Part shown: one piece after another, positions 13,028-56,813 of the stretch
How the letters are laid out: every line of letters starts with the position of its first letter
Numbering within the stretch: the stretch's first letter is position 1
IMG/VR virus record: IMGVR_UViG_3300017707_001811
Coordinates: 101,573-165,572 of that record
DNA: 64,000 nucleotides
From: a virus
Lineage: Duplodnaviria; Heunggongvirae; Uroviricota; Caudoviricetes
Strand: one strand, 5' to 3'
The notes under the pieces: model-generated
Told to the model about the DNA's origin: nothing
What the model saw: the letters and a program-made list of their open reading frames with translations, nothing else
Database searches by the model: none
Translations under genes and position numbers: made by a program

Positions 13028-13387
13028 TTATTTTGAAAGGTCAAATATAAAACTACATTTGTCTCCCATTTTAATACCTTCATTCTGACAACGACCACCC
13101 TCAATCTCTAATACATATTTACCGTATCCATTATAATTCTTACAAATTGGTGATTCACACGGCTCGCAGTTATAATGTATTTCAGTTACTGTTAAATCAC
13201 TATCAATAAAGATAATATCTAAAGGTATGATACAGTTCTTCATCCAAAAACTATGATACCCATTACCCATAAAGAATAACATACCATCAAATCCAATAAA
13301 TTCTTTACCCATCATTCCTTCAGAAATTTCTTTGGGTGAATTACATACCTTAACTTTTATATTTTCATTTTTTATTCTTACAAACAT
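13028..13387 (-). CDS. hypothetical Cys-rich protein
   Basis: ORF only. Confidence 0.4.
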   Translation of the reverse strand: MFVRIKNENIKVKVCNSPKEISEGMMGKEFIGFDGMLFFMGNGYHSFWMKNCIIPLDIIFIDSDLTVTEIHYNCEPCESPICKNYNGYGKYVLEIEGGRCQNEGIKMGDKCSFIFDLSK

Positions 13388-13439
13388 AGTTAATGATAAA
13401 TATTTTTTTTTTAAAAAAAATCAAATATTTATTTGATAC

Positions 13440-13465
13440 TACCAATTTCTTGCCGTAAGTTTGTA
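13440..13465 (+). promoter_or_regulatory. promoter copy 1 (TAAGTTTG -7 box at 13456-13463)
   Basis: ccgTAAGTTTGtaaaagatttga, a module also present at 13660 and 13768. Confidence 0.5.
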
Positions 13466-13550
13466 AAAGATTTGACACTTATAGGTGATGAAAGATACTC
13501 GGTAGTTAAATCAAAAAGTTCTTGTTTTATTTAGAAGATTGAAAATACTT

Positions 13551-13620
13551 CACGGGTGGCTCCCTTAATAGTTAAGGCTGACCTTAAACATCCACTCTAA
13601 AGTATACAGGGGGCGAAAGT
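13551..13620 (+). repeat. conserved about 63-nt RNA-like module, copy A
   Basis: GGCTCCCTTAATAGTTAAGGCTGACC, then 25 nt, then AGGGGGCGAAAG; copy B at 27079-27142 is 23/26 identical with the same 25-nt spacing. Confidence 0.6.
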
Positions 13621-13639
13621 GAAAAAAAATATTAATTTA

Positions 13640-13671
13640 TTTGACAGATTGAAAAAAATGTCGTAAGTTTG
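13640..13671 (+). promoter_or_regulatory. promoter copy 2: TTTG/TTGACA (13640-13646), 17-20 nt spacer, TAAGTTTG (13664-13671)
   Basis: Matches both the Bacteroidetes TTTG-N19-21-TAnnTTTG and a sigma70-like TTGACA-N17-TAAGTT geometry. Confidence 0.6.
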
Positions 13672-13748
13672 TAAAAGATTTGAGATTAAGGTTCACAAAG
13701 TGGTAAAACGATGAAAGTTTCCAAATCTCAAAAAAGTTCACAAATAAC

Positions 13749-13779
13749 TTGACAAATAGAAATAAATGTCGTAAATTTG
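13749..13779 (+). promoter_or_regulatory. promoter copy 3: TTGACA (13749-13754), 17 nt spacer, TAAATTTG (13772-13779)
   Basis: Third tandem copy of the same module, about 50 nt upstream of the ORF-free RNA region. Confidence 0.6.
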
Positions 13780-13830
13780 TAAAACAATTCGGAAATGTCC
13801 GAAACGTTCTTTGAAAAAATAGATTATCCA

Positions 13831-14740
13831 TTCTCTGAGTAAGTCGTATTCCCGCCTTCGTGTGACGAATATGAGCACTGAAAAGAGATAAACGATAATG
13901 GGCCGTGTATGGTCCTTAAATAAACTACGAAAGTAGGATAAAGTGGTCTCCCCCGTGTTGAGGAGGCTGCGGTTTGAAACCCCGTAAGGGGAATTGAACT
14001 CAAGTACACAAGTGGGATATCACCACACCTTTAGTACCGAGGGTAACACTGTAGGGAAAGTGGTAGGGTGACATGGCAATGTGGATTGTCAAGTTGAGTT
14101 CGGAAGAACAATAAGAATAACCCATAGGAATCAAGTAAGAAGTATAGTCATCCAACTATATAATTGCGGATTCCAATATGATAGAATACTTAAAACCGAA
14201 AGGTAAGGTAGAGAACGAGTGGTGTCGCTACTACCCCTAAGGATGACCTACCAAGGTCGCTTTCTGAAGTAATCTAAAAATATGGAGGTGGGGACACTTC
14301 ACGGAGTAGTTTAGTATTCTGTCACTCAAAAGGAGACGGAGCTTACGGTGGACCACTACTCTGACACATCCACGACACAAAACCTATTAATTTCACTGTT
14401 AATGAAAATTTAATACTAAAAATTACAAGGAAAAGTGTCCATCAGGTTTGAGTGAAAGGTGACTACATAGTAATGAGCCGTTCATTGCACACAAAGACCC
14501 CAAGTCAATGTGTATTGTTAAGAAAGACCTTTAATCCCGCAAGGACGAACTGGGGTGGCAACCTCGGAAAGAGTTAAGTACTGATAGAGTAATTCAGACC
14601 TCAAGGAGTGGTATACCTAAAAGACCGTCACTGAGAAATACTTCTCAAAAGGAAGTGGATACGAAGGGAACTAATAATCCTTCAAAAGATTCTCAATCAA
14701 AGCTGTAATCTCAGGCTTCGTTTAACTTAAAATATTATAT
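13831..14740 (+). ncRNA. large (about 0.9 kb) structured RNA of unknown class
   Basis: No ORF of 60 aa or more on either strand; GC well above flanks; several GNRA-capped hairpins (CCCC-GTAA-GGGG at 13980, GG-GCAA-CC at 14556, CC-GAAA-GG at 14196). Three tandem promoters lie upstream and a tRNA plus an intrinsic terminator lie downstream. Confidence 0.5.
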
Positions 14741-14812
14741 TGTGGGATAGAGCAGAGGTAGCTCGAAAGGCTCATAACCTTTAGGTCGGGGGTTCGAATC
14801 CCTCTCCCGCTA
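14741..14812 (+). tRNA. tRNA-Met(CAT)-like with U1-U72 mismatch
   Basis: Acceptor TGTGGGA/TCCCGCT (6/7 bp), D stem GAGC/GCTC, anticodon arm AAAGG-CTCATAA-CCTTT, T arm GGGGG-TTCGAAT-CCCTC. Confidence 0.55.
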
Positions 14813-14844
14813 CTAAATAGAAGTAGGTTTCACCTGTCGCAGGC

Positions 14845-14863
14845 GACGTAAAGTAAGAATCAC
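14845..14863 (+). repeat. copy of the gacgtaRagtaagaat motif found in the 36.4-kb tRNA cluster repeats
   Basis: gacgtaaagtaagaatcac versus gacgtagtaagaatagag at 36424. Confidence 0.4.
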
Positions 14864-14925
14864 AACTTGACTGGTCGTAACCTTCTGTAGTGGTTAATGT
14901 GAACACTATAGACTATTAAAAACAA

Positions 14926-14947
14926 GGTGGGGTAACCCACCTTTTTT
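14926..14947 (+). terminator. intrinsic terminator
   Basis: GGTGGG-GTAA-CCCACC followed by TTTTTT. Confidence 0.75.
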
Positions 14948-15013
14948 AATTATTAAAAATAACTTAAAATAATTTTTGATTTAAAAAATATTTATTAATA
15001 TAATTTAACTACT

Positions 15014-15277
15014 ATGGAAGTTAAAATTGGAGTTATTGAAACACATTACTATAAGGGAGAAAGAGAGTTACAAATTGTTGATTTGGAAAAGTTTCCAATT
15101 ATTAAACAATTTATAGAAGTAAACCCAAAAGCAACCGAAGAAGATTTATTAAAATATTTGAAGAAAATAAAAGATAAAGATTTTCAGAGGTTTATAAACG
15201 AATTATCATGGAATGAGATTAAAAAAGAGGACTTTACTAAAAGTAAAACTGAATTAATTGTAAAATTAGAAAAATAA
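15014..15277 (+). CDS. hypothetical protein
   Basis: ORF only. Confidence 0.35.
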   Translation: MEVKIGVIETHYYKGERELQIVDLEKFPIIKQFIEVNPKATEEDLLKYLKKIKDKDFQRFINELSWNEIKKEDFTKSKTELIVKLEK

Positions 15278-15313
15278 TTTTGTAAATTAAAAATTTTGTA
15301 GTAAATTTGTCCT

Positions 15314-17884: not shown

Positions 17885-17921
17885 ATTTTGTTTTTTAATG
17901 TTATTTTTATATCTTTGTATT

Positions 17922-18617
17922 ATGAAAATAACATTTATTTCCGATACACACAACAAACATAAGCAAGTCACTAGTTTATTACCTGGTGGGGATTTAATCA
18001 TACATGCTGGAGATATATCATCCATGGGGTATATCCACGAAGTTCAACAATTCTGTAAATGGTTTGAAGGATTAGATAACTATACAACTAAAGTTTTCAT
18101 TGCTGGAAACCATGATTTTGGTTTTCAGGATATTCCTAAAGAGATTAAAGAAATTGTTGATTTTTATGATGGAGTTAATTATTTACAAGACGATTTAATA
18201 CTACTTGGTGATAACTATAGTGAAATGGTTAAAATTTATGGTACTCCATGGCAACCTGAATTCCATAATTGGGCATTTAATTTACCAAGAAATGGATGGG
18301 AACTTGAACAAAAATGGAATGATATCCCGATAAATACGGATATATTAATTACTCACGGACCAGCCCAAGGATATTTGGACACCTCAGGACCACCTTGGAA
18401 TGAGCCCTTGTTAGGTTGCGAATTACTAGTTAAGAGAATTAAAGAAATAAAACCAAAAATTCACGTTTGTGGTCATATTCACGGAGGTTATGGTTATGTC
18501 TTTGATGGTGATACTCACTTCATTAATGCATCTGTACTAAATGAAAAATATGAATTTGTTAACAAACCACTTACAGTTGAGTGGGACCCTGTGACAAATG
18601 AACTTGATTTTCTATAA
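17922..18617 (+). CDS. calcineurin-like metallophosphoesterase
   Basis: Motifs ISDTHNKH, HAGDISSMG, AGNHDF and CGHIHGG. Start moved to the ATG 4 nt after the TATCTTTG -7 box at 17910-17917. Confidence 0.75.
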   Translation: MKITFISDTHNKHKQVTSLLPGGDLIIHAGDISSMGYIHEVQQFCKWFEGLDNYTTKVFIAGNHDFGFQDIPKEIKEIVDFYDGVNYLQDDLILLGDNYSEMVKIYGTPWQPEFHNWAFNLPRNGWELEQKWNDIPINTDILITHGPAQGYLDTSGPPWNEPLLGCELLVKRIKEIKPKIHVCGHIHGGYGYVFDGDTHFINASVLNEKYEFVNKPLTVEWDPVTNELDFL

Positions 18618-18730: not shown

Positions 18731-20593
18731 ATGGGAAAAATAATAGGTATTGACTTGGGAACTACAAATTCTTGCGTAGCGGTTATGGAAGGTAGTGACC
18801 CTGTAGTAATTACAAACAGTGAAGGAAAAAGAACCACCCCTTCAATTGTCGCATTTGCTAATGGTGGTGAAAGGAAAGTTGGTGACCCTGCTAAACGACA
18901 GTCGGTTACTAACCCTGATAAAACAGTGTATTCAATTAAAAGATTTATGGGAACTAGCTTTGAAGAAAGTAAAAAAGAAGCTGGCAGAGTCCCATACAAA
19001 ATTATAAATGGTAACAATACACCTAAAGTTGAAATTGATAAAAGAAATTACTCACCACAAGAAATTTCGGCAATAGTACTCCAAAAGATGAAACAAACTG
19101 CTGAGGACTATCTTGGACAAGAAGTAACTGAGGCTGTAATTACGGTACCTGCATATTTTAATGACGCTCAAAGACAAGCGACAAAAGAAGCTGGTGAGAT
19201 TGCAGGACTTACAGTAAGAAGAATCATAAACGAACCAACTGCCGCGGCTCTTGCGTATGGTTTAGATAAGAAATCTAAAGATATGAAAGTTGTAGTATTT
19301 GACTGTGGTGGTGGTACTCATGATGTATCCGTACTTGAACTTGGAGACGGTGTATTTGAAGTACTCTCAACTGATGGAGACACTCATCTTGGTGGTGACG
19401 ACTTTGACCAAGCAATTATTGATTGGTTAGTTATGGAATTTAAAGATGAAAATGGATTGGATTTAAAACAAGACCCAATGGCACTTCAAAGACTTAGAGA
19501 AGGAGCTGAAAAGGCAAAAATTGAACTTTCATCATCACCGTCAACTGAAATTAATTTACCATATATCATGCCAGTTGATGGAATACCAAAACATTTAGTA
19601 CGTACTCTATCTCGAGCTAAATTTGAACAATTAGTTGACGAATTAGTTAAAAGAACAATTAAACCATGTGAGTCGGCTTTAAAAAATGCAGGACTTAAAG
19701 TTTCTGAAATTGATGAAATTATTTTAGTTGGAGGTACAACAAGAATTCCTGTTATTCAGGATGCGGTTAAGAAGTTCTTTGGAAAAGAACCGTCAAAAGG
19801 GGTTAACCCTGATGAAGTAGTCGCTTTAGGGGCGGCTATCCAAGGAGGAGTTTTAGCTGGTGATGTTAAAGATGTGCTACTTTTAGATGTCACACCACTA
19901 TCACTTGGTATTGAAACAATGGGTGGGGTTTTTACAAAGTTGATTGAGGCAAACACAACTATCCCAACCAAAAAGTCACAAGTATTCTCAACCGCTGTAG
20001 ATAATCAACCATCAGTTGAAATCCATGTATTACAGGGTGAAAGAGCTATGGCTAAAGACAACAGAACCATTGGTCGTTTCCATCTTGACGGATTACCACC
20101 AGCAATGAGAGGTATTCCACAGATTGAGGTAACATTTGATATTGATGCTAACGGTATTATTAATGTGTCGGCATTGGATAAAGGAACCAATAAACAACAA
20201 AATATTCGAATCGAATCTTCTTCAGGACTTTCAAAAGAAGAAATTGAAAAAATGAAAAAAGAGGCTGAAATGAATGCGGAATCTGATAAGAAAATTAAAG
20301 AAGAGACTGAAACAATTAACAAGGCAGATTCAGTAATTTTCCAAACCGAGAAGGCTTTAAAAGATTTAGAGGATAAAATTGGTGACGAAGATAAAAATAG
20401 AGTGATGGTTGCTTTGGAAGAATTAAAAACCGCACATCAGAATAGAGACGTAGAAAAGATTAATTCTTCTATTGATAATGTTAATAACATCTTTCAAGGA
20501 ATAAGTCAGAATATATATCAACAGATGTCAGACATTGTGAACGAAGATAAAGATGTTGAGGTAACCGATGTTGATTTTGAAGAAGTTAAGTAA
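18731..20593 (+). CDS. dnaK: chaperone DnaK (Hsp70)
   Basis: [14 protein letters not shown] and [12 protein letters not shown] ATPase motifs; full-length 620 aa Hsp70 architecture. Confidence 0.95.
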
Positions 20594-20650: not shown

Positions 20651-21220
20651 ATGAAGGTAATATTTTTAGACCACGATGGGGTTATTTGCTTATCAAATAA
20701 CTGGGGGTCACGATTTAAGAAACAAAAGAAATATAGAAAAAAATTGAGTCAATCAGTAATGACAATGCCTCTTGATGCTCGTTTTGATAACTTTGATAAG
20801 AAAGCGATTAAGGTGTTAAATCAAATCTTGGAACAGACTGGTGCTGAAATCGTTGTTTCTTCCGATTGGAGGATTTGGTGTTCAGTTGAGGAAATGGGTG
20901 ATTATTACGAAAGTCATGGAATTATCAAACGTCCAATTGATTTTACAGGTAATGTTATTGATGAATCAAAAGTTACATGGCACCGAAATTGGGATTTGGA
21001 AGGAACAAGGAGTTTGGAAATCCAAGGTTGGTTAAAAGAACACCCTGAGGTAACACAATGGGTAGCTATTGATGATTTGAATATGGGTAAAAAAGGTCTA
21101 CACTACTCAACGGAATTTGAACACGAATGGGGGTTAGATAATTTTGTACATACTCCTCTTAGAAATGAAGGTATAAAACAAGTTGGTATTAAAGAAAAAA
21201 TTTTATCATTTTTAAAATAA
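20651..21220 (+). CDS. HAD-superfamily hydrolase-like protein
   Basis: N-terminal FLDHDGVI (DxDG motif I). Confidence 0.4.
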   Translation: MKVIFLDHDGVICLSNNWGSRFKKQKKYRKKLSQSVMTMPLDARFDNFDKKAIKVLNQILEQTGAEIVVSSDWRIWCSVEEMGDYYESHGIIKRPIDFTGNVIDESKVTWHRNWDLEGTRSLEIQGWLKEHPEVTQWVAIDDLNMGKKGLHYSTEFEHEWGLDNFVHTPLRNEGIKQVGIKEKILSFLK

Positions 21221-21470: not shown

Positions 21471-21507
21471 ATGTTACAAAACAGTTCTTTGACATATTGG
21501 TGAATTT

Positions 21508-21547
21508 CGGGATGTAGCTCAGTTGGCTTAGAGTACGTGCTTTGGGA
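21508..21547 (+). pseudogene. 5' fragment of a disrupted tRNA (acceptor, D arm and anticodon-arm 5' part)
   Basis: CGGGATG-TA-GCTC-AGTTGGCTTA-GAGT-A-CGTGC-TTTGGGA, with nothing pairing downstream. Confidence 0.45.
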
Positions 21548-21590
21548 GCTCAAAACATGTTTTTTCGACTTTCATGATATTTATTATTAA

Positions 21591-22148
21591 ATGAATATTA
21601 TGGAAATAACTAAATATGTTTTGATAGAAGTTGTAAACACTTCTAAAAGTAAATCAGAAATACTTAAAAAGCTTGAATTGAGTGATAATGGTAGAAATAG
21701 AAATCATTTAAATAAATTAATTTCTGAATTTGGTGTTAGTTTAGATATTTTGAAAAAAAATAAAAGAATTAATACTAAATTTATTGAAAAAGAATGCCCT
21801 GTTTGTGGTAAAATCTTTGAAACTAAAAAAACAGATAGAGAAAAAACAACTTGTTCTTATAGTTGTTCGAACAGTTATTTTAGAAGCGGAGAAAATAATC
21901 CAAATTGGAAAGATGATAGTTACAGAACAACATGTTTTTTATATCATGAGAAGAAATGCGTAGTGTGTGGTGAAGATAAAATAATTGACGTTCATCATTA
22001 TGATGAAAACAAAAAAAATAATAACAAAGAAAATTTAATTCCTCTTTGCCCAACTCATCACATGTATTGGCACTCAAGATATAAAAATTTAATTGAAAAA
22101 ACTGTTAACAACTATAGAGATGATTTCATTAAACGAGTAATGGGCTAA
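21591..22148 (+). CDS. HNH endonuclease
   Basis: CVVCGEDKIIDVHHYDENKK...NLIPLCPTHHMYWH. Confidence 0.7.
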   Translation: MNIMEITKYVLIEVVNTSKSKSEILKKLELSDNGRNRNHLNKLISEFGVSLDILKKNKRINTKFIEKECPVCGKIFETKKTDREKTTCSYSCSNSYFRSGENNPNWKDDSYRTTCFLYHEKKCVVCGEDKIIDVHHYDENKKNNNKENLIPLCPTHHMYWHSRYKNLIEKTVNNYRDDFIKRVMG

Positions 22149-22208
22149 TTGGTAAGCCGCCATATTTGGGATATGGACATCATGTGGGTTCGAGTCCCAC
22201 TTATTCGA
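22134..22208 (+). tRNA. tRNA-Pro(TGG), overlapping the HNH gene stop
   Basis: Acceptor CGAGTAA/TTATTCG, D stem GGCT/AGCC, anticodon arm CCATA-TTTGGGA-TATGG, T arm GTGGG-TTCGAGT-CCCAC. Confidence 0.75.
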
Positions 22209-22211
22209 CAC

Positions 22212-25720: not shown

Positions 25721-26024
25721 TATGACACAGAAACAACAAGACGCAATTGATAATATAATGGACAACTTCAAGTTTGAACAAGTCCGAAAAGTAATGGAAC
25801 TATTGGATTGGGAATGGGCGGGAACTGAAGAAGGTGTTCCAACCATTCCTGAATTGAGACGAGAAGCAAGACGACTATTAAAAATGTCGTTTGAAGAAAA
25901 AACAAACGTATCAACAGGTGGATTCCACGTAATGTACGAATCAAATGATGACGGAGAGTTTATTCAATTGATGTTTGCGGTTGAAGAATGGTATGAAGAA
26001 ATAGAAGAATATTTGGAAGAATAA
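25701..26024 (+). CDS. hypothetical acidic protein
   Basis: ORF only. Confidence 0.4.
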   Translation: MTIKINNMTQKQQDAIDNIMDNFKFEQVRKVMELLDWEWAGTEEGVPTIPELRREARRLLKMSFEEKTNVSTGGFHVMYESNDDGEFIQLMFAVEEWYEEIEEYLEE

Positions 26025-26035
26025 GAAAGTTGTTA

Positions 26036-26043
26036 TATCTTTG
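26036..26043 (+). promoter_or_regulatory. TATCTTTG -7 box with no ORF downstream; likely promoter of an ncRNA starting near 26050
   Basis: Same motif as upstream of more than 15 genes; followed by 500 nt without an ORF. Confidence 0.5.
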
Positions 26044-26047
26044 TTGA

Positions 26048-26439
26048 AGTTCTTTGAAATTAGGAAATTAAAGTGTTTAACGGCAGATTTTGATATAAGT
26101 GTTAGAGAGGATAAAAATCTATGAAACTTATAAGACAATTAGGAAGAGTTATCTTTACGTTGGGAGCTAAAAGTGGAGATAATAAAGTATCTATAACCGT
26201 TAAACCTTTTAAAATATTGATAGTGGTTTTCCCCACTCAACGGATGTCGACAATCTAGATTGGAATCGGAATTCATCACCATCAGCCGAGGCCTCGTAAA
26301 ACTACGATTAAGCTGTTAAGATTGGGACGAGACGGGTATCCCAACACTGTCAACAATATTGTGTTGTTCCCTTGAGAAAGGAAGATTGCGGAGATGAACA
26401 GTAAGCTCACAACACAGAGGACTTCTCATCCTCAAACAT
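26048..26439 (+). ncRNA. structured ORF-free RNA region upstream of the tRNA-mimic element
   Basis: Numerous short perfect hairpins (CGAGGCCTCG, GGGA..TCCC, CAACA-ATATTG-TGTTG, GAGGA-CTTCTCA-TCCTC); no ORF. Confidence 0.4.
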
Positions 26440-26537
26440 AGTCAGGTGGCGGAATTGGCGCCAAAGTTAAGGTGTGTTAAGGCGTGACCCGTTGAGGACC
26501 ATCCAATGACTTACAGGTTCGAATCCTGTCCTGACTT
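26440..26537 (+). ncRNA. tRNA-mimic/Y-RNA-like element copy 1 (98 nt)
   Basis: 5' AGTCAGG-TGGCGGAA...ACAGG-TTCGAAT-CCTGT-CCTGACT 3': perfect 7-bp terminal helix plus canonical T arm, but no resolvable anticodon arm. Confidence 0.5.
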
Positions 26538-26552
26538 CTAAATTTAAAAGAT

Positions 26553-26777
26553 ATGAATAGAACACTTGAAGAAATTGTGAAAACACCAGAATTAACTGAC
26601 GGTACTGAAGTCACATTCAGAGTTGTAAATGAAACTTTCAATGGTAAAATTGTAGGTAAATCATCCGATGGATTGATGCCGTATTACATCGTTGAATGTA
26701 CTGATGGGTCATTTCCAAATGAAATGTATAAGTATAAATTCTTATCTTTACCACTTAGTGAAATATTTGTTAAGTGA
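26553..26777 (+). CDS. hypothetical small protein
   Basis: 74-aa ORF between the two tRNA-mimic copies. Confidence 0.3.
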   Translation: MNRTLEEIVKTPELTDGTEVTFRVVNETFNGKIVGKSSDGLMPYYIVECTDGSFPNEMYKYKFLSLPLSEIFVK

Positions 26778-26785
26778 TAAAAAAT

Positions 26786-26866
26786 AGTCAGGTGGCGGAA
26801 ATAGTATCTCTATAATATACTTGATGAGGTATGAGGTTGACTCAGTATTAGTTCCTATCCTGACTA
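26786..26866 (+). ncRNA. tRNA-mimic/Y-RNA-like element copy 2 (81 nt, no T arm)
   Basis: Same 17-nt 5' end ATAGTCAGGTGGCGGAA and 3' end CCTATCCTGACT as copy 1, with an unrelated interior. Confidence 0.4.
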
Positions 26867-27078
26867 CAATGAGTAAGAGGTACTCAGAGTCTTCGAATCA
26901 AGACTTAAAGAATGATTCCGCAGAATGTCTACGGCGTGAGTGGGACATCGTGGGATAAAGGGATAGACACATTCCCTCCCAGTAGTGTTGGATGTTTTTA
27001 ACGGGGATGCCCAGCAGGTTTTTAAGAAATAGAAAACCGATATGACTACTCATTTGTAATCTCAGGATGGGGAAAGCA

Positions 27079-27142
27079 AGGGCTCCCTTAATAGCTGTGG
27101 CTGACCACGGGCGTTGCTTGTTCCGTTATATAGGGGGCGAAG
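27079..27142 (+). repeat. conserved RNA-like module, copy B
   Basis: GGCTCCCTTAATAGCTGTGGCTGACC, then 25 nt, then AGGGGGCGAAGA; paralogous to 13551-13620. Confidence 0.6.
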
Positions 27143-27191
27143 ACGGAACTTTTTAGTAATTATTTATAGGTATTTATAAATAAAATAGAAT

Positions 27192-28068: not shown

Positions 28069-28142
28069 GTGTCTATAGTGTTAGCGGTCTAGCACGAAGG
28101 GTTGTGGTTCCTTTAGCACCAGTTCGAATCTGGTTAGACACA
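28069..28142 (+). tRNA. tRNA-His(GTG), G-1 and CCA encoded
   Basis: Acceptor GTGTCTA/TAGACAC preceded by G, anticodon arm AAGGG-TTGTGGT-TCCTT, T arm ACCAG-TTCGAAT-CTGGT, then A-CCA. Confidence 0.75.
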
Positions 28143-28149
28143 CCATTAT

Positions 28150-28237
28150 GGAGAGTGAGAGAGGGAAATGGTTTCCCCGACTGTCTGCTAAACAGTAACC
28201 CATTAAGTTGGGTGTGGTTCGATTCCACCATTCTCCG
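28150..28237 (+). tRNA. tRNA-Ser(GCT)
   Basis: Acceptor GGAGAGT/ATTCTCC, anticodon arm ACTGT-CTGCTAA-ACAGT, variable hairpin CCCA-TTAAGT-TGGG, discriminator G; D region oversized. Confidence 0.65.
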
Positions 28238-28242
28238 CTTTT

Positions 28243-33052: not shown

Positions 33053-34678
33053 ATGGCTAAATTCAGAAACACAGGATTAAAAGAGAAGTTGGACTCTACA
33101 AAACCAAAGAAAAATCTCGTCGCAAAAATGTCGGTTCCTAAACCAAACACAACTAACCTACAAGGTTATGAAGCTTATGATATCGATAATTGGCTACGAC
33201 TAATCTCACTGTTAAACACATCAAAACTTCAACCACAATTTTATCGTTCAGAGAATGATACAATGCGTGAACTGAAGAAATTAATTGATGTATGTGGTAA
33301 AGAAGACCCATACTTCGCGGCACAGTGTATTGTATACTCTCGTTGTGTCGGAGAAGGTATGCGTTCAATCAACCACTTGGCGGCCGTTTACTTGGCACCA
33401 TATATGAGTGGTAAAGAATGGTCAAAACGTTTCTTCTCCGTATGGGATAAGAAAAACCAAAAAGGTGGAACGATTTTCCGTCCTGATGATATGGCAGAAA
33501 TCGTTGCGGCATATACTGCGATGAATGATAAGAGTATCACAAACGCAATGAAAAAAGGTTTCCGTGAAGCACTTGAAAAAATGGATGCTTATAGTCTGTT
33601 AAAGTACAAATCGGCAGTACTTGACATGATTAATTTGGTACATCCAGACCCAAATGAATCAAAAGCTCTTGTTGATTACATGGATAAAAAAGTACCAGCG
33701 TTCGAAGCAATCATTAAAGGGTATAATGTATCTGCGGATACTTGGGAAGTTGCACAATCTGACGCAGGTCAAATTGTTGCACAAGCGGTTCGTGAAGGTA
33801 AACTCTCAGAATCAGAAGCTAAAGAAGTATTAACTGAACAAAAGTCAGAAAACTGGAAAGGGTTATTGACTGAAGGTAAGTTGGGTATTTTGGCCGCTAT
33901 TCGAAATATGAGAAACATTCTTACCAACAAACCTGAGGCGAAAACAATTGACACTCTGTGTGATTTGGTTTCAAATCCTGAATTGATTAAAAAAGGTAAG
34001 ATTATGCCATACCAACTTGACTTGGCAAATGAAGTAATGAACTCTGAGTTTAGTGATACTAACTCAAGAAAGTTGTCAAAAGCTTTATTGACAGGTTATG
34101 AGTTGGCGGTTCCGAACCTTAAAGAACTACTTACAGGTAACAACCTTGTAATCATTGATATGTCAGGTTCTATGGACACTGAAGTACTTGACCCTAACAG
34201 AAAAACAAATTACAAGAGTACTTGTATGGATAAAGCAAGTCTAATCGGAATGACAATTGCTAAGGCGACAAATGCAGATGTTATCCGTTTCGGTTCAAGT
34301 GCTGAGTATATTACTTATAACCCTAACCAAGATGTGTTCAGTTTGGCAAAATCTATCCGTAAAGGAATGGGTGGTACAAACTTGTCACAAGCTTGGGCGA
34401 AGGCTCAAAGTTCAGGTAGAAAATACGACCGTGTTTTTATCTTGTCTGACAATGAGTGTAACATGGGTTCAACATACCGTAATTATACAAGTTATGTTGA
34501 AAAGGTTGGTGACCCATACGTATATTCAATTGACCTAGCATCTTACGGAACTACCGCAATTGCAGGACCTAAAGTAAGATACTACTACGGTTATGGATAC
34601 TCAATGTTTGATGATATCGCTAAGAGTGAGTTCAACCCAAACTATCATATTGAAAAAATCCGTAAGATTGAAATTTAA
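33053..34678 (+). CDS. rsr: Ro60/Rsr orthologue (TROVE domain plus C-terminal vWA/MIDAS)
   Basis: 541 aa. Co-linear matches to vertebrate/bacterial Ro60: N-terminal N..G..AY....L.RL..LL...FYRSE, KIMPYQLD (Ro60 RIHPFHIL), vWA DMSGSMDT, GGTNLSQAWAKAQ (Ro60 GSTDCALPMLWAQ), YDRVFILSDNECN (Ro60 ADIFIVFTDCETN), C-terminal GYGYSMFDDI (Ro60 GFDSGALDVI). Confidence 0.8.
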   Translation: MAKFRNTGLKEKLDSTKPKKNLVAKMSVPKPNTTNLQGYEAYDIDNWLRLISLLNTSKLQPQFYRSENDTMRELKKLIDVCGKEDPYFAAQCIVYSRCVGEGMRSINHLAAVYLAPYMSGKEWSKRFFSVWDKKNQKGGTIFRPDDMAEIVAAYTAMNDKSITNAMKKGFREALEKMDAYSLLKYKSAVLDMINLVHPDPNESKALVDYMDKKVPAFEAIIKGYNVSADTWEVAQSDAGQIVAQAVREGKLSESEAKEVLTEQKSENWKGLLTEGKLGILAAIRNMRNILTNKPEAKTIDTLCDLVSNPELIKKGKIMPYQLDLANEVMNSEFSDTNSRKLSKALLTGYELAVPNLKELLTGNNLVIIDMSGSMDTEVLDPNRKTNYKSTCMDKASLIGMTIAKATNADVIRFGSSAEYITYNPNQDVFSLAKSIRKGMGGTNLSQAWAKAQSSGRKYDRVFILSDNECNMGSTYRNYTSYVEKVGDPYVYSIDLASYGTTAIAGPKVRYYYGYGYSMFDDIAKSEFNPNYHIEKIRKIEI

Positions 34679-36326: not shown

Positions 36327-36366
36327 TAAAAATAAGATTTTACTTGACAAGAGTATATTTATAACT

Positions 36367-36415
36367 TACCTTTGTCAAACAATTCAGTAAAGACTGAAAC
36401 GTTCTTTGAAAAATT
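36367..36415 (+). promoter_or_regulatory. tRNA-cluster promoter (TACCTTTG -7 box) plus shared motif gaaacgttctttgaaaaa
   Basis: TACCTTTG at 36367-36374; the 18-mer GAAACGTTCTTTGAAAAA (36397-36414) recurs at 13801-13818 just upstream of the large RNA. Confidence 0.5.
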
Positions 36416-36427
36416 AAAAAAATTGAC

Positions 36428-36452
36428 GTAGTAAGAATAGAGTTACTTCGCA
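36428..36452 (+). repeat. hairpin repeat R1 (AGTAA-N8-TTACT-TCG)
   Basis: gtagtaagaatagagttacttcgca, followed by a T-arm-like minihelix ATTGG-TTCGAAT-CCAAT. Confidence 0.55.
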
Positions 36453-36575
36453 TATTGGTTCGAATCCAATATTTGCCGCAATTTTGGCAGATTAGACAAA
36501 TGGATAAGTCGACGGTCTCATAAACTGTTATAGAAAAACAACCTCTACTCGTTTTCTCGTCATAAAATATTGATT

Positions 36576-36602
36576 GATAGTAATAGATAAGGTTACTTCG
36601 TA
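36576..36602 (+). repeat. hairpin repeat R2
   Basis: gatagtaatagataaggttacttcgta; ends at the 5' end of the following tRNA. Confidence 0.55.
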
Positions 36603-36671
36603 AAATAGCTCAATTGGATGAGCATTTGTATCAGGAACAAAAGGATACGGGTTCAACTCCCGTTTTTACAA
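36599..36671 (+). tRNA. class-I tRNA with anticodon CAG (Leu by anticodon) and C1-A72 mismatch, CCA encoded
   Basis: Acceptor CGTAAAA/TTTTACA, D stem GCTC/GAGC, anticodon arm TTTGT-ATCAGGA-ACAAA, 5-nt variable loop, T arm ACGGG-TTCAACT-CCCGT, then A-CCA. Confidence 0.45.
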
Positions 36672-36714
36672 CCAAAAAAACCTTCCTAACTTTCTTCAAT
36701 CAAACTTATTATCA

Positions 36715-36740
36715 GATAGTGAAGAGACAGTTACTTCAAA
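36715..36740 (+). repeat. hairpin repeat R3
   Basis: gatagtgaagagacagttacttcaaa (AGTGA/TTACT with a compensatory G-U); followed by a degenerate tRNA-like segment with T arm TCGGG-TTCGAAT-CCCGA (36721-36788). Confidence 0.5.
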
Positions 36741-36847
36741 TTTTTCTGGAACAAAAAAGGCTCGGGTTCGAATCCCGACTCCTCTTCGGGGGATGTGGTG
36801 TAGCGGTAGCACTAGATAACACTGTTTCTATTTTCTTCTGATTAAAC

Positions 36848-36931
36848 GCCGAGGTGATGAAAAGGTAGACATGACAGACTTAAAATCTGTTGGGCAGTTC
36901 GCCCGTGCGGGTTCGAATCCCGCCCTCGGTA
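36848..36931 (+). tRNA. tRNA-Leu(TAA)
   Basis: Acceptor GCCGAGG/CCTCGGT, D stem ATG/CAT, anticodon arm ACAGA-CTTAAAA-TCTGT, variable hairpin GGGC-AGTTC-GCCC, T arm GCGGG-TTCGAAT-CCCGC. Confidence 0.75.
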
Positions 36932-36940
36932 CTAAAACAA

Positions 36941-37015
36941 GCCTCCATAGCTCAGCAGGTTTAGAGCGACTGATTTGTAATCAGTAGGTCGTTGGTTCGA
37001 TTCCGACTGGAGGCT
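36941..37015 (+). tRNA. tRNA-Thr(TGT)
   Basis: Acceptor GCCTCCA/TGGAGGC, anticodon arm ACTGA-TTTGTAA-TCAGT, T arm GTTGG-TTCGATT-CCGAC. Confidence 0.8.
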
Positions 37016-37026
37016 CTAATATATAT

Positions 37027-37101
37027 GCTCGGTTCGTCTAGACTGGTCTAGGACACTACCCTTTCACGGTATAAACACGGGTTCGAATCCCGTACCGAGT
37101 A
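37027..37101 (+). tRNA. tRNA-Glu(TTC)
   Basis: GTCT-AGACTGGTCTA-GGAC D arm, anticodon loop CTTTCAC, T arm ACGGG-TTCGAAT-CCCGT; resembles E. coli tRNA-Glu. Confidence 0.75.
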
Positions 37102-37107
37102 CTAAAT

Positions 37108-37137
37108 GAAGTAGTAAGGATAAGAGTTACTTCGCAA
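37108..37137 (+). repeat. hairpin repeat R4
   Basis: gaagtagtaaggataagagttacttcgca. Confidence 0.55.
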
Positions 37138-37195
37138 ATTACTTTTAATGATTCAAGCAAAAACAAACTCTTTCCAACGTTCTCTTCATTAATTT

Positions 37196-37280
37196 GGGAG
37201 TGTCACCATAGCGGCGATTGGCCCGCACTGTAAATGCGGTACCTAAGGTTCCATCGTAGGTTCGAGTCCTACCGCTCCCA
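37196..37280 (+). tRNA. tRNA-Tyr(GTA), class II
   Basis: Acceptor GGGAGTG/CGCTCCC, anticodon arm CCGCA-CTGTAAA-TGCGG, variable arm, T arm GTAGG-TTCGAGT-CCTAC. Confidence 0.75.
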
Positions 37281-37598
37281 CAAAACACGACGAAAATAGG
37301 ATTAAAGCTCCTGTTATCACGACACCAAGATACGGTACGAGTGCGCGCTTAATGACTGTTGCGGTGAGGAGGGAATAAGTAGGGTTTAGCTAACCCAATT
37401 ACGAAAACCTCATAACAAAAATAAAGGACCACCAATCTCAGGTGGTGTAATAAAATGTTTGGGTCGGATGTGGATAATGCTTCCACGCAGTGTTTTAAAT
37501 TTAAAAAAAAAACAAACTTTAAAAAGGGCCCTTCCTGAAATATTGGCTTGTTGGGCCCGAGTTTGTTAAATCCCCCACCTTTTGAGTGGGGTTTTTTA
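37281..37598 (+). ncRNA. ORF-free structured region at the end of the tRNA cluster, ending in an intrinsic terminator
   Basis: Perfect hairpins GGGTTTAGCTAACCC, CACCA-ATCTCAG-GTGGTG, GGGCCC-N21-GGGCCC; terminal CCCCACC-TTTTGA-GTGGGG followed by TTTTTT (37571-37598). Confidence 0.4.
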
Positions 37599-43667: not shown

Positions 43668-43742
43668 GAAGAAGTAGCTCAGACGGTAGAGCATAGGGTT
43701 AGAAATCCCTTGTGCCGCGAGGTTCGATTCCCGCCTTCTTCA
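43668..43742 (+). tRNA. tRNA with irregular anticodon arm (4-bp stem with 8-nt loop TTAGAAAT, or 3-bp stem with anticodon AGA) and a bulged T stem
   Basis: Acceptor GAAGAAG/CTTCTTC perfect, D stem GCTC/GAGC, T loop TTCGATT, discriminator A. Confidence 0.45.
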
Positions 43743-53841: not shown

Positions 53842-54102
53842 AATTTACTTATTGATTTACATACCGCTCGTTGGACACTTAATGGTGACATGGTAAATGC
53901 AATTCTTGACAATATTGGAGGTTATTCATATGCACATACAAATGGTAATGTTTGGGATGAAGATGACAAGTACGATAAAGCTTATGAAAGATTTGTTGAG
54001 AAACATAATGATATTATGAGTGGTAACTATAGTAAAACAACTAAGGTATATGAAACACCTAAAGATTCTAAATGGTTAAAAAATGAAAATGATGGAAAAT
54101 AA
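53815..54102 (+). CDS. hypothetical protein
   Basis: ORF only. Confidence 0.35.
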   Translation: MTKKEKFFHNLLIDLHTARWTLNGDMVNAILDNIGGYSYAHTNGNVWDEDDKYDKAYERFVEKHNDIMSGNYSKTTKVYETPKDSKWLKNENDGK

Positions 54103-55237
54103 TAATTCAGTGTGCTATGTAGCACGTATTGACGAAATTAAAGAAATACCTGGCGCTGATAACATTGTACAAGGTGTTATTGGAGGATGGAATTGTATTA
54201 TTCAAAAAGAACAATACCAAGCTGGCGACTTAGTAGTTGTTGCAACTACAGATGCGGTTATTCCTTTAGATTTATCTGATGCGATGAACGTGACTAATTA
54301 TTTACGTAAAGGTCAACGTGTACGTACTGTTAAGTTGAGAGGTGTTTATTCTGAATGTTTAATCATTCCTTTAAAATACGCTCGTGAAGTAGCTAAACAT
54401 GCTAACACAAAATGGGATGAAGGTGAAGACATGATGGATGTATTAAAGATATTTAAATACGAACCACCTGCAGTACAAATACAATTATCTTCAGGTAAAA
54501 AGGTAAGATATCACCAAAACCCGAACTTCCATGTTTACTATAAGTTCCCAAACTTGAAGAATGTTGCAGGAATGTTTACCGAAGAAGATACTGTTGAAAT
54601 TACTCGTAAAATTCACGGTACAAATGCTCGTTATGGGATTGTTAAGAAAACTAAATTAACATTATGGGATAAGTTTAAGAAGTTTATTGGATTGGCGGAT
54701 AAATGGATTGAGTATGAGTATGTGTATGGTTCTCATAATGTTGAAAAGGGGTCCGACTCACAAGGGTTTTATTCAACTGATGTGTGGAGAGAGGTTGCTG
54801 ACAAATACCAAATCAAAAAGAAGTTATGGGATTATGTTAAAAACAACGCTATGGAACCAGAAATTGGAGATGGGATTACAATATACGGTGAAATCTATGG
54901 TGCGGGTATCCAAAAGAACTATGAATACGGTTTAAATGATATTAAATTTGTGGGGTTCGATGTTAAAGAAAACGGAGAGTATTTAAGTCCTATTAATGCT
55001 AAACTACAGATTAAATATCTTTTAGAATTGCCATATGTCGAAATCTTACATTTCGGAAAATGGTCTCAAGAGGTACAAGACAAATATACATTTAATAACT
55101 TTATTGAAGGTACAAAAGTACCACATGAAGGTATTGTGATTAAATATGAGTCGGGTGGACGTAATAAAGTGGCAAAAGTAATCAACCCAGATTATTTAAT
55201 TTATGCTGAAAAAAAGGATGTTGGGGACTCTCACTAA
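54083..55237 (+). CDS. RNA ligase, Rnl2 family, with N-terminal extension
   Basis: Motif I RKIHGTNARYG (T4 Rnl2 EKIHGTN) and motif V NKVAKVINPDY. Confidence 0.7.
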   Translation: MKMMENNNSVCYVARIDEIKEIPGADNIVQGVIGGWNCIIQKEQYQAGDLVVVATTDAVIPLDLSDAMNVTNYLRKGQRVRTVKLRGVYSECLIIPLKYAREVAKHANTKWDEGEDMMDVLKIFKYEPPAVQIQLSSGKKVRYHQNPNFHVYYKFPNLKNVAGMFTEEDTVEITRKIHGTNARYGIVKKTKLTLWDKFKKFIGLADKWIEYEYVYGSHNVEKGSDSQGFYSTDVWREVADKYQIKKKLWDYVKNNAMEPEIGDGITIYGEIYGAGIQKNYEYGLNDIKFVGFDVKENGEYLSPINAKLQIKYLLELPYVEILHFGKWSQEVQDKYTFNNFIEGTKVPHEGIVIKYESGGRNKVAKVINPDYLIYAEKKDVGDSH

Positions 55238-56030: not shown

Positions 56031-56813
56031 TTGGAATGTTTATTGGATATCTTGCAACTAAACACATGTTTGAAAAAGAAAATGATTGAAAAATTAATTA
56101 AAAATAGAACTCCATATCTAGGTAAGATGATATTGAAGTTTGAGAAATACCCTCACTATACAAGTAGTCAGGATGGTAAATTAAATAAAGTTCACCTTAA
56201 TTTATGGTTTACCAAATTGGTTTCTAGATTCATACCAAGACAGGTAATGGAAGGTCAGACCAATGTTGACCCTGAAAAAGTTAAGTTAATTGAAAAATAT
56301 ACTGATGGAGTTATTGGAACTCACAAGTGGGGAAATAATGATGAGTATGTTTTGGAGGATTCATTCCTAACTAAAGACGGAAAATATATAGGTAATATTG
56401 ATACTGCTTGGTGGTATTTTAAAAACGGAATGACCGTTTGTGAAGAGTATCCACACGGAGTTGCTATTGTTTGGAATACCGCGAACTCTGATAAAACATT
56501 GATGAGTGGACAAGATGGGATTAAAGGTTATTATGGTTATTCACATCGTGGAGGAGCTTTATTAACAATCGGGGATAGAATTTTTGATAAGGAGTATAAT
56601 CCTGTTGTTGAAGATTACGATAATAAGGAGTTTAAAAAGTGGTGGAAAAAATACGCCAAGTCATATAAAAAGGGTGACGATTTTGATAGAAAACACATTT
56701 ATAATGATGGAATTAAATCAGTAATACCATTTAATAAACGAGGAAAACATATTATTAAAAATTGGTCAGACGCAATGAATTCGGCAATAAACGTGTCAAA
56801 ATATTTAGGATAA
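56031..56813 (+). CDS. hypothetical protein
   Basis: ORF only. Confidence 0.4.
   Translation: MECLLDILQLNTCLKKKMIEKLIKNRTPYLGKMILKFEKYPHYTSSQDGKLNKVHLNLWFTKLVSRFIPRQVMEGQTNVDPEKVKLIEKYTDGVIGTHKWGNNDEYVLEDSFLTKDGKYIGNIDTAWWYFKNGMTVCEEYPHGVAIVWNTANSDKTLMSGQDGIKGYYGYSHRGGALLTIGDRIFDKEYNPVVEDYDNKEFKKWWKKYAKSYKKGDDFDRKHIYNDGIKSVIPFNKRGKHIIKNWSDAMNSAINVSKYLG

Follow-up and report, generated by a model that had tools for sequence, protein, structure and literature searches.

A GOLLD RNA transcription unit with tandem promoters and a conserved hairpin and boxA-like leader in a tRNA-rich phage genome

GOLLD RNAs are among the largest non-coding RNAs of bacteria and phages, and they form RNA-only nanocages larger than the ribosome. 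One of them, the metagenomic env-38, has been solved by cryo-electron microscopy (cryo-EM) as a D7 14-mer RNA nanocage, 380 Å across and with the linker inside, in which the GC dinucleotide of loop L21a forms a symmetric kissing contact, B8; env-38 lies downstream of a Met-tRNA (PMC12286853). The GOLLD of Streptococcus agalactiae is a 12-mer, and the oligomer number depends on 5′-domain elements such as P11a-c (PMC12990946). Cages of 10, 12 or 14 subunits, built without protein, are characteristic of GOLLD RNAs, as is expression that climbs during lytic growth of the phage. Here we analyse a stretch of 64,000 nucleotides (nt) from a Caudoviricetes virus (positions 101,573 to 165,572 of IMG/VR record IMGVR_UViG_3300017707_001811; hereafter the window), in which an earlier note, made from the sequence alone, had placed a highly structured RNA of unknown class at 13831-14947. 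We conclude, with a probability of roughly 90%, that the locus is a GOLLD transcription unit in a tRNA-rich, jumbo-phage-like genome with Bacteroidota-type promoters. The GOLLD class is already known, and the new copy adds no new class.

The assignment is carried by a scan of the entire window against Rfam 15 (cmscan), in which the sole large match other than tRNA was to GOLLD (RF02032), at 14302-14717 on the + strand with 316.8 bits (E 7e-90; gathering score 150). The alignment takes in model positions 1-416 of 416 without truncation, and non-canonical pairs are few. The label of unknown class therefore falls, and the suggestion of the earlier note that GOLLD be tested was correct, the match standing well above the gathering score. 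Since the Rfam model describes the conserved 3′ domain alone and leaves out the less conserved 5′ domain (P1-P13), the 5′ half was analysed separately. The sequence of the env-38 cryo-EM construct (Supplementary Table 4 of Kretsch et al. 2025) is collinear over its nt 5-816 with window positions 13901-14717, at 67.6% identity, its 5′ domain being nt 5-420; as about 17 of the published 833 nt are missing from the extracted text, these residue numbers are approximate. Because the core is collinear with env-38, both domains are of the canonical GOLLD type: a 5′ domain at 13898-14301 on the + strand, which is the cap domain of the solved structure and is marked by collinearity from 13901, viral homologues and covariation, and the 3′ domain matched by cmscan. 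Together they make up a core of about 820-830 nt (13898-14717) that is shown to belong to the GOLLD family in its 3′ and 5′ domains alike, and that has the length (about 800 nt or more) and the phage context near tRNA genes expected of a GOLLD RNA. A megablast search of window positions 1-25000 against INPHARED gave no match, and an exact 34-mer taken from the linker was not found in IMG/VR.

Viral relatives were sought in IMG/VR with a conserved GOLLD motif, which listed at least 119 loci on contigs of up to 304 kilobases (kb). BLAST found homologues of both halves at about 100 of these, with identities of 68-89% for the 5′ half (13790-14301) and 70-88% for the 3′ half, and 13 of the viral motif matches, among the matches listed, were chance occurrences without GOLLD. 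The motif scan of genome contigs gave 120 loci, all of them chance matches with no BLAST similarity to either GOLLD half. When 62 distinct relatives are aligned, positions 13740-13830 are highly conserved; conservation collapses at 13840-13885, is high again from about 13890 to 14719 and collapses past 14720, and the 3′ end of the conserved GOLLD RNA lies near 14719. Within the core the profile dips at 14380-14420 to an identity of 0.35-0.41, with gaps; this is part of the linker (about 14362-14440, inside the 3′ domain), which is A/U-rich, unpaired and variable in the RF02032 alignment and the conservation profile.

The conserved core is also a conserved structure. An RNAalifold consensus of 56 sequences contains 204 pairs, with compensatory changes in 125, so that the comparison with relatives for covariation proposed in the earlier note came out positive. 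Among the 110 consensus pairs of the 5′ domain, 97.5% of the cells are paired, against 35-41% with the partners slid; compensatory (double) changes occur in 75 of the 110 pairs, against 19-30; the covariation score is 0.438, against 0.055-0.111; and none of 500 shuffles reached any observed measure. The structure came from the same alignment, which makes the percentage paired partly circular but leaves the counts of compensatory changes unaffected. None of 20 dinucleotide shuffles folded as well as the 934-nt RNA (minimum free energy z = -3.17), the consensus structure holds six GNRA tetraloops (at 13929, 13990, 14102, 14198, 14291 and 14459), and the G+C content is 0.38-0.45 across 13700-14900 compared with 0.23-0.30 in the flanks on both sides. 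The earlier description of a discrete, highly structured non-coding RNA, GC-richer than its flanks and with multiple GNRA-capped helices, is thus upheld.

The likeness to env-38 includes a core of about 830 nt whose domains are joined by a variable A/U linker, a P11 tip with a GAAA loop, an adjacent tRNA-Met and a GGCA loop. This loop, at 14557-14560 in the 3′ domain, is invariant in the 56 sequences and aligns with the GGCA of env-38; allowing for the numbering offset, it would correspond approximately to L21a, and a kissing pairing can be predicted from the loop sequence. The tRNA-Met, however, lies downstream in the window and upstream in env-38, and a conserved leader of about 110 nt (a hairpin, a boxA-like element and a helix with a variable insert) precedes the part that corresponds to the solved RNA. 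The GOLLDs of Streptococcus agalactiae, Lactobacillales and Mycobacterium belong to the same family and share the setting of tRNA arrays, HNH endonuclease genes and phage (PMC12990946; PMC6582537), but they are without P9, P11a-c and P21b (as in the S. agalactiae 12-mer) or carry a tRNA inside the linker, whereas the window RNA has a fuller, env-38-type 5′ domain, no embedded tRNA and a Bacteroidota-like promoter type. ROOL, the other candidate raised in the earlier note, shares the phage and prophage niche near tRNAs and, by analogy, cage formation. Nevertheless, there is no sequence or structure match to it in Rfam, the ROOL covariance model giving none at the gathering score in the window and none at E<=1 in a permissive scan of 13300-15050, and this candidate drops out.

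Upstream of the core lie three tandem promoter modules, as the earlier note had recognised. They are 60-nt direct repeats on the + strand, 72-77% identical to the reference copy, and the only exact occurrences of their core CGTAARTTTGTAAAA in the 64 kb are in these three modules. Module 1 (13414-13473; repeat family D1) carries an A-tract, a -33 TTTG and a -7 box TAAGTTTG (13456-13463); module 2 (13622-13681) has a -33 TTTGACA and the same -7 box (13664-13671); and module 3, the proximal one (13730-13789), has an A-tract, CTTGACA at 13748-13754 and TAAATTTG at 13772-13779. Module 3 is widely conserved, with a column identity of 64-82% across the 62 relatives, and was matched in a sigma-70-like scan. 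The Bacteroidota sigma-A consensus, as in promoters of Bacteroides and Flavobacterium, consists of a -33 TTTG and a -7 TAnnTTTG. All three modules fit the corresponding pattern TTG-N19-22-TAnnTTTG, which occurs in the window 25 times on the + strand and four times on the - strand (5.0 +/- 2.0 in dinucleotide shuffles), and the + strand carries 38 of the 43 open reading frames (ORFs) of 150 amino acids or more. The window thus has promoters with both boxes, spaced by about 19-21 nt, and enriched on the coding strand upstream of genes, and the host is probably a member of the Bacteroidota. A contig from a Flavobacteriia metagenome-assembled genome is already in the published GOLLD alignment, so this host range is not new. 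Of 59 relatives, 39 have at least two such motifs in the 700 nt before GOLLD.

The spacers between the modules hold elements of their own. Directly past the -7 box of module 1 lies a leader hairpin, here called type B (13471-13510, + strand; TTTGAC..GATGAAAGATACTCGG..GTTAAA), which is followed by a degenerate boxA, GTTCTTGTTTT (13518-13528, + strand). Over 64 nt (13454-13517) this leader is 95% identical to that of one relative, L075, compared with 84-87% in the less conserved GOLLD body. A type B element is found directly upstream of GOLLD in about ten other loci, and its outer stem covaries (TTTGAA/TTCAAA, TTTGAC/GTTAAA and TTTAAC/GTTAAA). Type B leaders were seen in L014, L016, L017, L031, L049, L051, L055, L067, L070, L075, L090, L109 and L111, and their core AGGnnATGAAAGAYACTCG is nearly invariant. 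A reading of this leader (GUGAUGA) as a kink-turn (box C/D) was rejected, only AUGAAAGA being conserved across the copies. Inserted between promoters 1 and 2 is a repeated structured element of about 65 nt (13552-13621, + strand; GGCTCCCTTAATAG..GGCTGACC..AGGGGGCGAA), with the pattern GGCTCCCTTAATAG-N4-GGCTGACC ... TATAnAGGGGGCGAA; its outer stem is GCUCCCU/AGGGGGC, and CUGA forms the loop of its inner hairpin. It has a second copy at 27081-27145 (two matches, where none is expected) and a third in L101 near 3722, and the inner stem covaries between copies (TTAAGG/CCTTAA versus CTGTGG/CCACGG); Rfam gave no match to it at E<=1. The leader of module 2 (13679-13732, + strand) can be read from its sequence as a hairpin, TTTGAGATT ... 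AAATCTCAAA with an internal GATGAAAG, whose folding is not exceptional. Nothing credible was matched by Rfam at E<=1 in the inter-promoter spacers.

From module 3 onwards the order is A-tract, CTTGACA, TAAATTTG, a hairpin at 13788-13803, CGTTCTTTGAAAA at 13805-13817, a helix with an insert and the GOLLD core, and the proximal module and the next 50 nt are conserved in most relatives. The 5′-terminal hairpin (TTCGG-AAATGT-CCGAA, + strand), in a boxB-like position, has compensatory variants in the relatives (TTCGG/CCGAA in 15, TCAGG/CCTGA in eight, ATCGG/CCGAT in six, and CTTGG/CCAAG). Likewise, the helix 13832-13835/13885-13888 on the + strand, which encloses a lineage-variable and non-conserved hairpin insert, is TCTC/GAGA in the window and TCAG/CTGA (28 times), TCGA/TCGA, TTGG/CCGA or TTAC/GTAA elsewhere. 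Because both leader helices covary, the leader is taken to be transcribed and folded. A candidate pairing of the leader string GATACTC with the GOLLD body was dropped, its complement being absent from the window.

The leader also contains the boxA-like element GTTCTTTGAAA at 13806-13816 on the + strand (extended form CGTTCTTTGAAAAAA, 13805-13819). It is near-invariant, occurring in 55 of 58 relatives at 23-115 nt upstream of the core, and it stands about 20 nt from the presumed start on the transcribed strand, in the leader of a long untranslated transcript. Against the boxA consensus GYTCTTTAANA (PMC5725501) it agrees at 10 of 11 positions, and the variants GTTCTTTAAAT and GTTCTTTAACA of the relatives agree at 11 of 11, this consensus being gamma-proteobacterial. 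Stringer et al. 2020 showed that boxA shields long untranslated CRISPR transcripts from Rho and detected it predominantly in genera of Proteobacteria, Bacteroidetes and Cyanobacteria; in their supplement the boxA of one Bacteroidia CRISPR leader is given as AGTTCTTTGACATGTTGAAA (AGTTCTTTGACA...) (PMC7665894). The window element resembles the rrn-type boxA of rRNA leaders, suhB and CRISPR arrays in its place in the leader of a long untranslated transcript, in the hairpin before it, in its fit to the consensus and in its occurrence before other stable RNAs. It differs in that it heads an ornate phage RNA rather than rRNA or a CRISPR array.

Exact copies of GTTCTTTGAAA number four in the window, all on the + strand, where 0.16 are expected. 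One belongs to a further copy of the promoter, hairpin and boxA series at 36340-36413 (boxA at 36401), about 185 nt upstream of a cluster of five tRNA genes (36599-37281), which reads CTTGACA..TTACCTTTG, a hairpin ATTCAG-taaaga-CTGAA and then GTTCTTTGAAAAA. A tRNA-like fragment, GGTTCGAATCC, was seen at about 36440-36480, where ARAGORN makes no call. At six loci on related contigs (L019(-):9341, L080(+):3894, L093(+):221, L112(+):171, L119(+):5142 and L048(+):3542) a promoter and GTTCTTTGAAA stand directly before the apparent 5′ ends (..TATGGGGGTGTTTTTGGATTTGACAGG) of putative phage transfer-messenger RNAs (tmRNAs). The 635-kb phage LR745206.1 has the order promoter, hairpin, boxA, tRNA ... 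tRNA-Met, hairpin, boxA, GOLLD; there is no promoter between its tRNA-Met and GOLLD, and its second hairpin is unrelated in sequence. In L001 a hairpin of unrelated sequence occupies the place of the leader hairpin, and a second boxA copy lies inside one operon. A 16S gene sought in the fetched related loci for its rrn-leader boxA was found in none of these loci. Literature matches for GTTCTTTGAAAA were mycoplasma polymerase chain reaction primers only, and the string is thus conserved in Mollicutes; we take these primers to target the rRNA operon, the primer paper stating no location. Since rrn leaders are built in this way, with stable-RNA units headed by a hairpin and then boxA, we infer that this leader may serve rrn-style antitermination by Nus factors and chaperoning of the transcript. 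In the limited literature searched, no link between GOLLD and antitermination, or such a leader, was apparent by title or abstract.

Downstream of the core lies an initiator-like tRNA-Met(CAT) at 14741-14813 on the + strand, called by both ARAGORN and Rfam. As read from its sequence it has a U1xU72 mismatch, A11:U24 and two G-C pairs at the bottom of the anticodon stem. A mismatch of the U1xU72 type and A11:U24 are features of bacterial initiators, whose canonical anticodon stem has three G-C pairs, one more than here. A check against E. coli genomes obtained only 13 tRNA-Met matches. Among the 60 relatives with enough flank, tRNA-Met is the sole tRNA directly adjoining GOLLD, lying 10-19 nt downstream of it in six and just upstream of the promoter and leader in another six, and most of these GOLLD-adjacent genes share the same initiator-like sequence. 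In the window it is followed by a non-conserved trailer with two hairpins (14814-14923, + strand), which has no homologue among the 119 listed viral loci and no Rfam match at E<=1, and by an intrinsic terminator, AAGGTGGGGTAACCCACCTT and a T run (14924-14949, + strand), with an 8-base-pair stem at 14924-14943 of which five pairs are G-C; trailer and terminator together fold with z = -2.98. The tRNA-Met lies downstream without an intervening terminator and is therefore probably co-transcribed with GOLLD. A 12-nt exact direct repeat, TAACTTAAAATA, flanks the block of tRNA-Met, trailer and terminator, a block not conserved in position in the relatives, at 14723-14734 and 14960-14971. It could be the mark of a cassette insertion; by a rough estimate its length is about that expected by chance in A/T-rich DNA, and we leave it uninterpreted.

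The boundaries of the RNA can be narrowed accordingly. At seven other promoters of the window (box ends at 15309, 17917, 25293, 35839, 40747, 45073 and 50163) an ATG lies 4 nt past the -7 box, which suggests leaderless or nearly leaderless mRNAs and a start about 5 nt past the box; the GOLLD RNA would therefore begin near 13784-13786. Conservation and covariation of the leader likewise put its 5′ end there. The interval of the earlier note does enclose the GOLLD core, and the tRNA-Met-like gene and the terminator that it placed behind the RNA are both present. However, it begins some 45 nt inside the transcript and merges four things (a portion of the leader, the core, the tRNA, and the trailer together with the terminator), so that 14741-14947 is not part of the large RNA.

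Could the region be a degenerate or frameshifted protein gene, which the earlier note had named as a finding that would overturn its reading, or a large RNA of another kind, such as ROOL, a group I/II intron, RNase P, tmRNA or an rRNA fragment? Length alone speaks for this, and we consider it next to impossible. The longest ORF across 13637-14947 is 64 amino acids on either strand, in keeping with the earlier description of the region as ORF-free; substitutions in the helices are compensatory and not codon-periodic; and even at E<=1 only GOLLD and tRNA pass in Rfam, with nothing else credible and no ROOL, RNase P, tmRNA or intron, as the earlier failure to recognise RNase P, tmRNA or rRNA by eye had indicated. 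The Rfam scans, the ORF survey and the covariation together refute it. A less drastic alternative is that module 3 is the sole GOLLD promoter, the upstream two being decaying duplications or driving separate short RNAs, for example a type B hairpin RNA or the 65-nt element. It draws on the confinement of broad conservation to module 3, on the presence between modules 1 and 2 of a hairpin conserved in L075 and of a structured element with a paralogue at 27081, and on the degeneracy of the boxA of module 1. We nevertheless think it unlikely, since the -33 and -7 boxes are intact in all three copies, series of two to four modules are found again ahead of GOLLD in 39 of 59 relatives, the weak leader hairpin is the only terminator-like site from module 1 to module 3, and the intervening segments fold unexceptionally, no better than shuffles (z = 0.0 to 1.2).

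The function of the leader admits a similar choice. GTTCTTTGAAA and its hairpin might be a processing or stability module, or a binding site for a phage protein, and not an antitermination signal; in the processing form, the 5′ stem-loop would block 5′-end-dependent decay and an RNase E/G or RNase III site would trim the leader from GOLLD, tRNAs and tmRNA. Like RNase E sites, the motif is rich in A/U and, in the consensus fold, unpaired; two of its window copies stand before small ORFs, Nus binding to the leader is itself a proposal, and the leader lies beyond the core shared with env-38, which fits its removal. On the other hand, the near-complete or complete fit to the boxA consensus, the hairpin-then-boxA order close to the start of untranslated stable RNAs, and the second boxA copy within the L001 operon, which recalls the leader and spacer copies of rrn, are features of rrn leaders, and we regard the alternative as rather unlikely, although a processing or stability function is a serious rival. 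The two functions are in any case compatible and not mutually exclusive. Several points do weigh against the fuller picture of an antiterminated, cage-forming operon. Two of the four exact copies of GTTCTTTGAAA in the window (26049 and 44233) precede small protein-coding ORFs and not stable RNAs, the boxA assignment is drawn from similarity and position, and the leader, which the solved env-38 construct does not include, might be removed by processing or have a different function. The hairpin equivalent to P11a is cut to ACC-GAAA-GGU, leaving a gap of about 17 nt relative to env-38, and the cage itself is proposed by homology. The position of the tRNA-Met is not conserved, with the gene beside GOLLD in just 12 of about 60 relatives, and its co-transcription is deduced from the arrangement in the window. 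Lastly, promoter activity and the heavy transcription assumed in the earlier note would follow from the promoter architecture.

The surroundings of the unit are rich in tRNA genes, of which ARAGORN finds 23 in the window, and in genes of phage type and other kinds (a lysozyme, a methylase and a Tad6-like Thoeris inhibitor). An RNA-centred set comprises a Ro60/TROVE and vWA protein (weak, E 7e-6), an RNA ligase with a PHA02142 OB domain, a HAD_SAK_2 protein ('Swiss Army Knife' RNA repair) and a metallophosphoesterase, and the window encodes a full-length Hsp70 (852 bits) as well. This set, together with the Hsp70 and Tad6-like genes, lies at 33053-34678, 54083-55237, 20651-21220, 17898-18617, 18731-20593 and 56031-56813. 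The tRNA callers differ at some sites, the genes at 28069-28142 and 43668-43742 being found by Rfam and not by ARAGORN, and a tRNA-Ser at 28150-28238 by ARAGORN and not by Rfam. A terminator and a boxA with one mismatch, GTTCTTTGACA (21484), precede an apparent 5′ part of a tRNA-Pro(UGG) (21497-21560), which is followed by an HNH-endonuclease ORF (21591-22148) and a complete tRNA-Pro (22134-22209). ARAGORN with introns allowed reports at this site the complete gene only, and the arrangement may be the trace of a homing-endonuclease insertion or a duplication.

A second composite non-coding locus may lie at 26010-27190, where a promoter and an exact boxA (26049) head a 1.1-kb ORF-poor stretch with a raised G+C content of 0.33-0.465 and no Rfam family match. 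Its segment 26062-26230 is almost identical in L033 and L005 and includes an ORF of 45 amino acids with a Shine-Dalgarno-like site; the three sequences show few differences, and a synonymous one (GTT/GTG/GTA) is among them. After this ORF come a covarying hairpin segment (TGGGA..TCCCA versus TGGAG..CTCCA), a sub-threshold class II tRNA-like sequence (26440-26537, 27 bits), an ORF of 74 amino acids, another tRNA-like sequence at about 26786-26875 and a terminator.

The GOLLD unit would probably work as follows. Host RNA polymerase would start at up to three tandem strong promoters, and the nascent RNA would open with a stable 5′ hairpin and then the boxA-like element. This element might recruit NusB/NusE and the remaining Nus factors in the way known from rRNA operons and CRISPR arrays; the long untranslated transcript would then withstand Rho and receive help in folding while it is being made. 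By homology with env-38 and the S. agalactiae GOLLD, the RNA would fold into a 5′ 'cap' and a 3′ 'ring' domain and self-assemble, protein-free, into a closed nanocage of identical subunits, with the A/U-rich linker turned towards the interior; its stoichiometry is not predictable, because the P11a-equivalent hairpin is shortened. RNase P and 3′ processing would free the tRNA-Met, with the unit ending at the terminator at 14924. Judging by the genomic context, the cage may help the phage to control tRNA supply or translation at a late stage of infection.

What is gained here is a set of corrected boundaries and a complete promoter-to-terminator unit with easily read promoters, and the comparison with some 60 relatives reveals a conserved hairpin and boxA-like leader that is missing from the solved construct and common to tRNA and putative tmRNA units of this phage group. 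We put forward, as a proposal to which we assign somewhat less than an even chance, that GOLLD in tRNA-rich phages of the Bacteroidota type is a stable-RNA operon on the model of rRNA operons, with stacked promoters, a hairpin and boxA that borrow the host Nus machinery of antitermination and RNA chaperoning, frequent coupling to an initiator tRNA-Met, and a leader in common with tRNA clusters and tmRNA genes. Should the leader prove a genuine boxA, it would account for the escape from Rho of an untranslated phage RNA of about 1 kb and would provide a regulatory link of GOLLD to phage tRNA and tmRNA genes, and Nus-aided co-transcriptional folding may matter for cage assembly. Were the operon model as a whole to hold, a modified, chaperone-like elongation complex would be needed for cage assembly, and GOLLD would form part of a co-regulated translation-takeover regulon.

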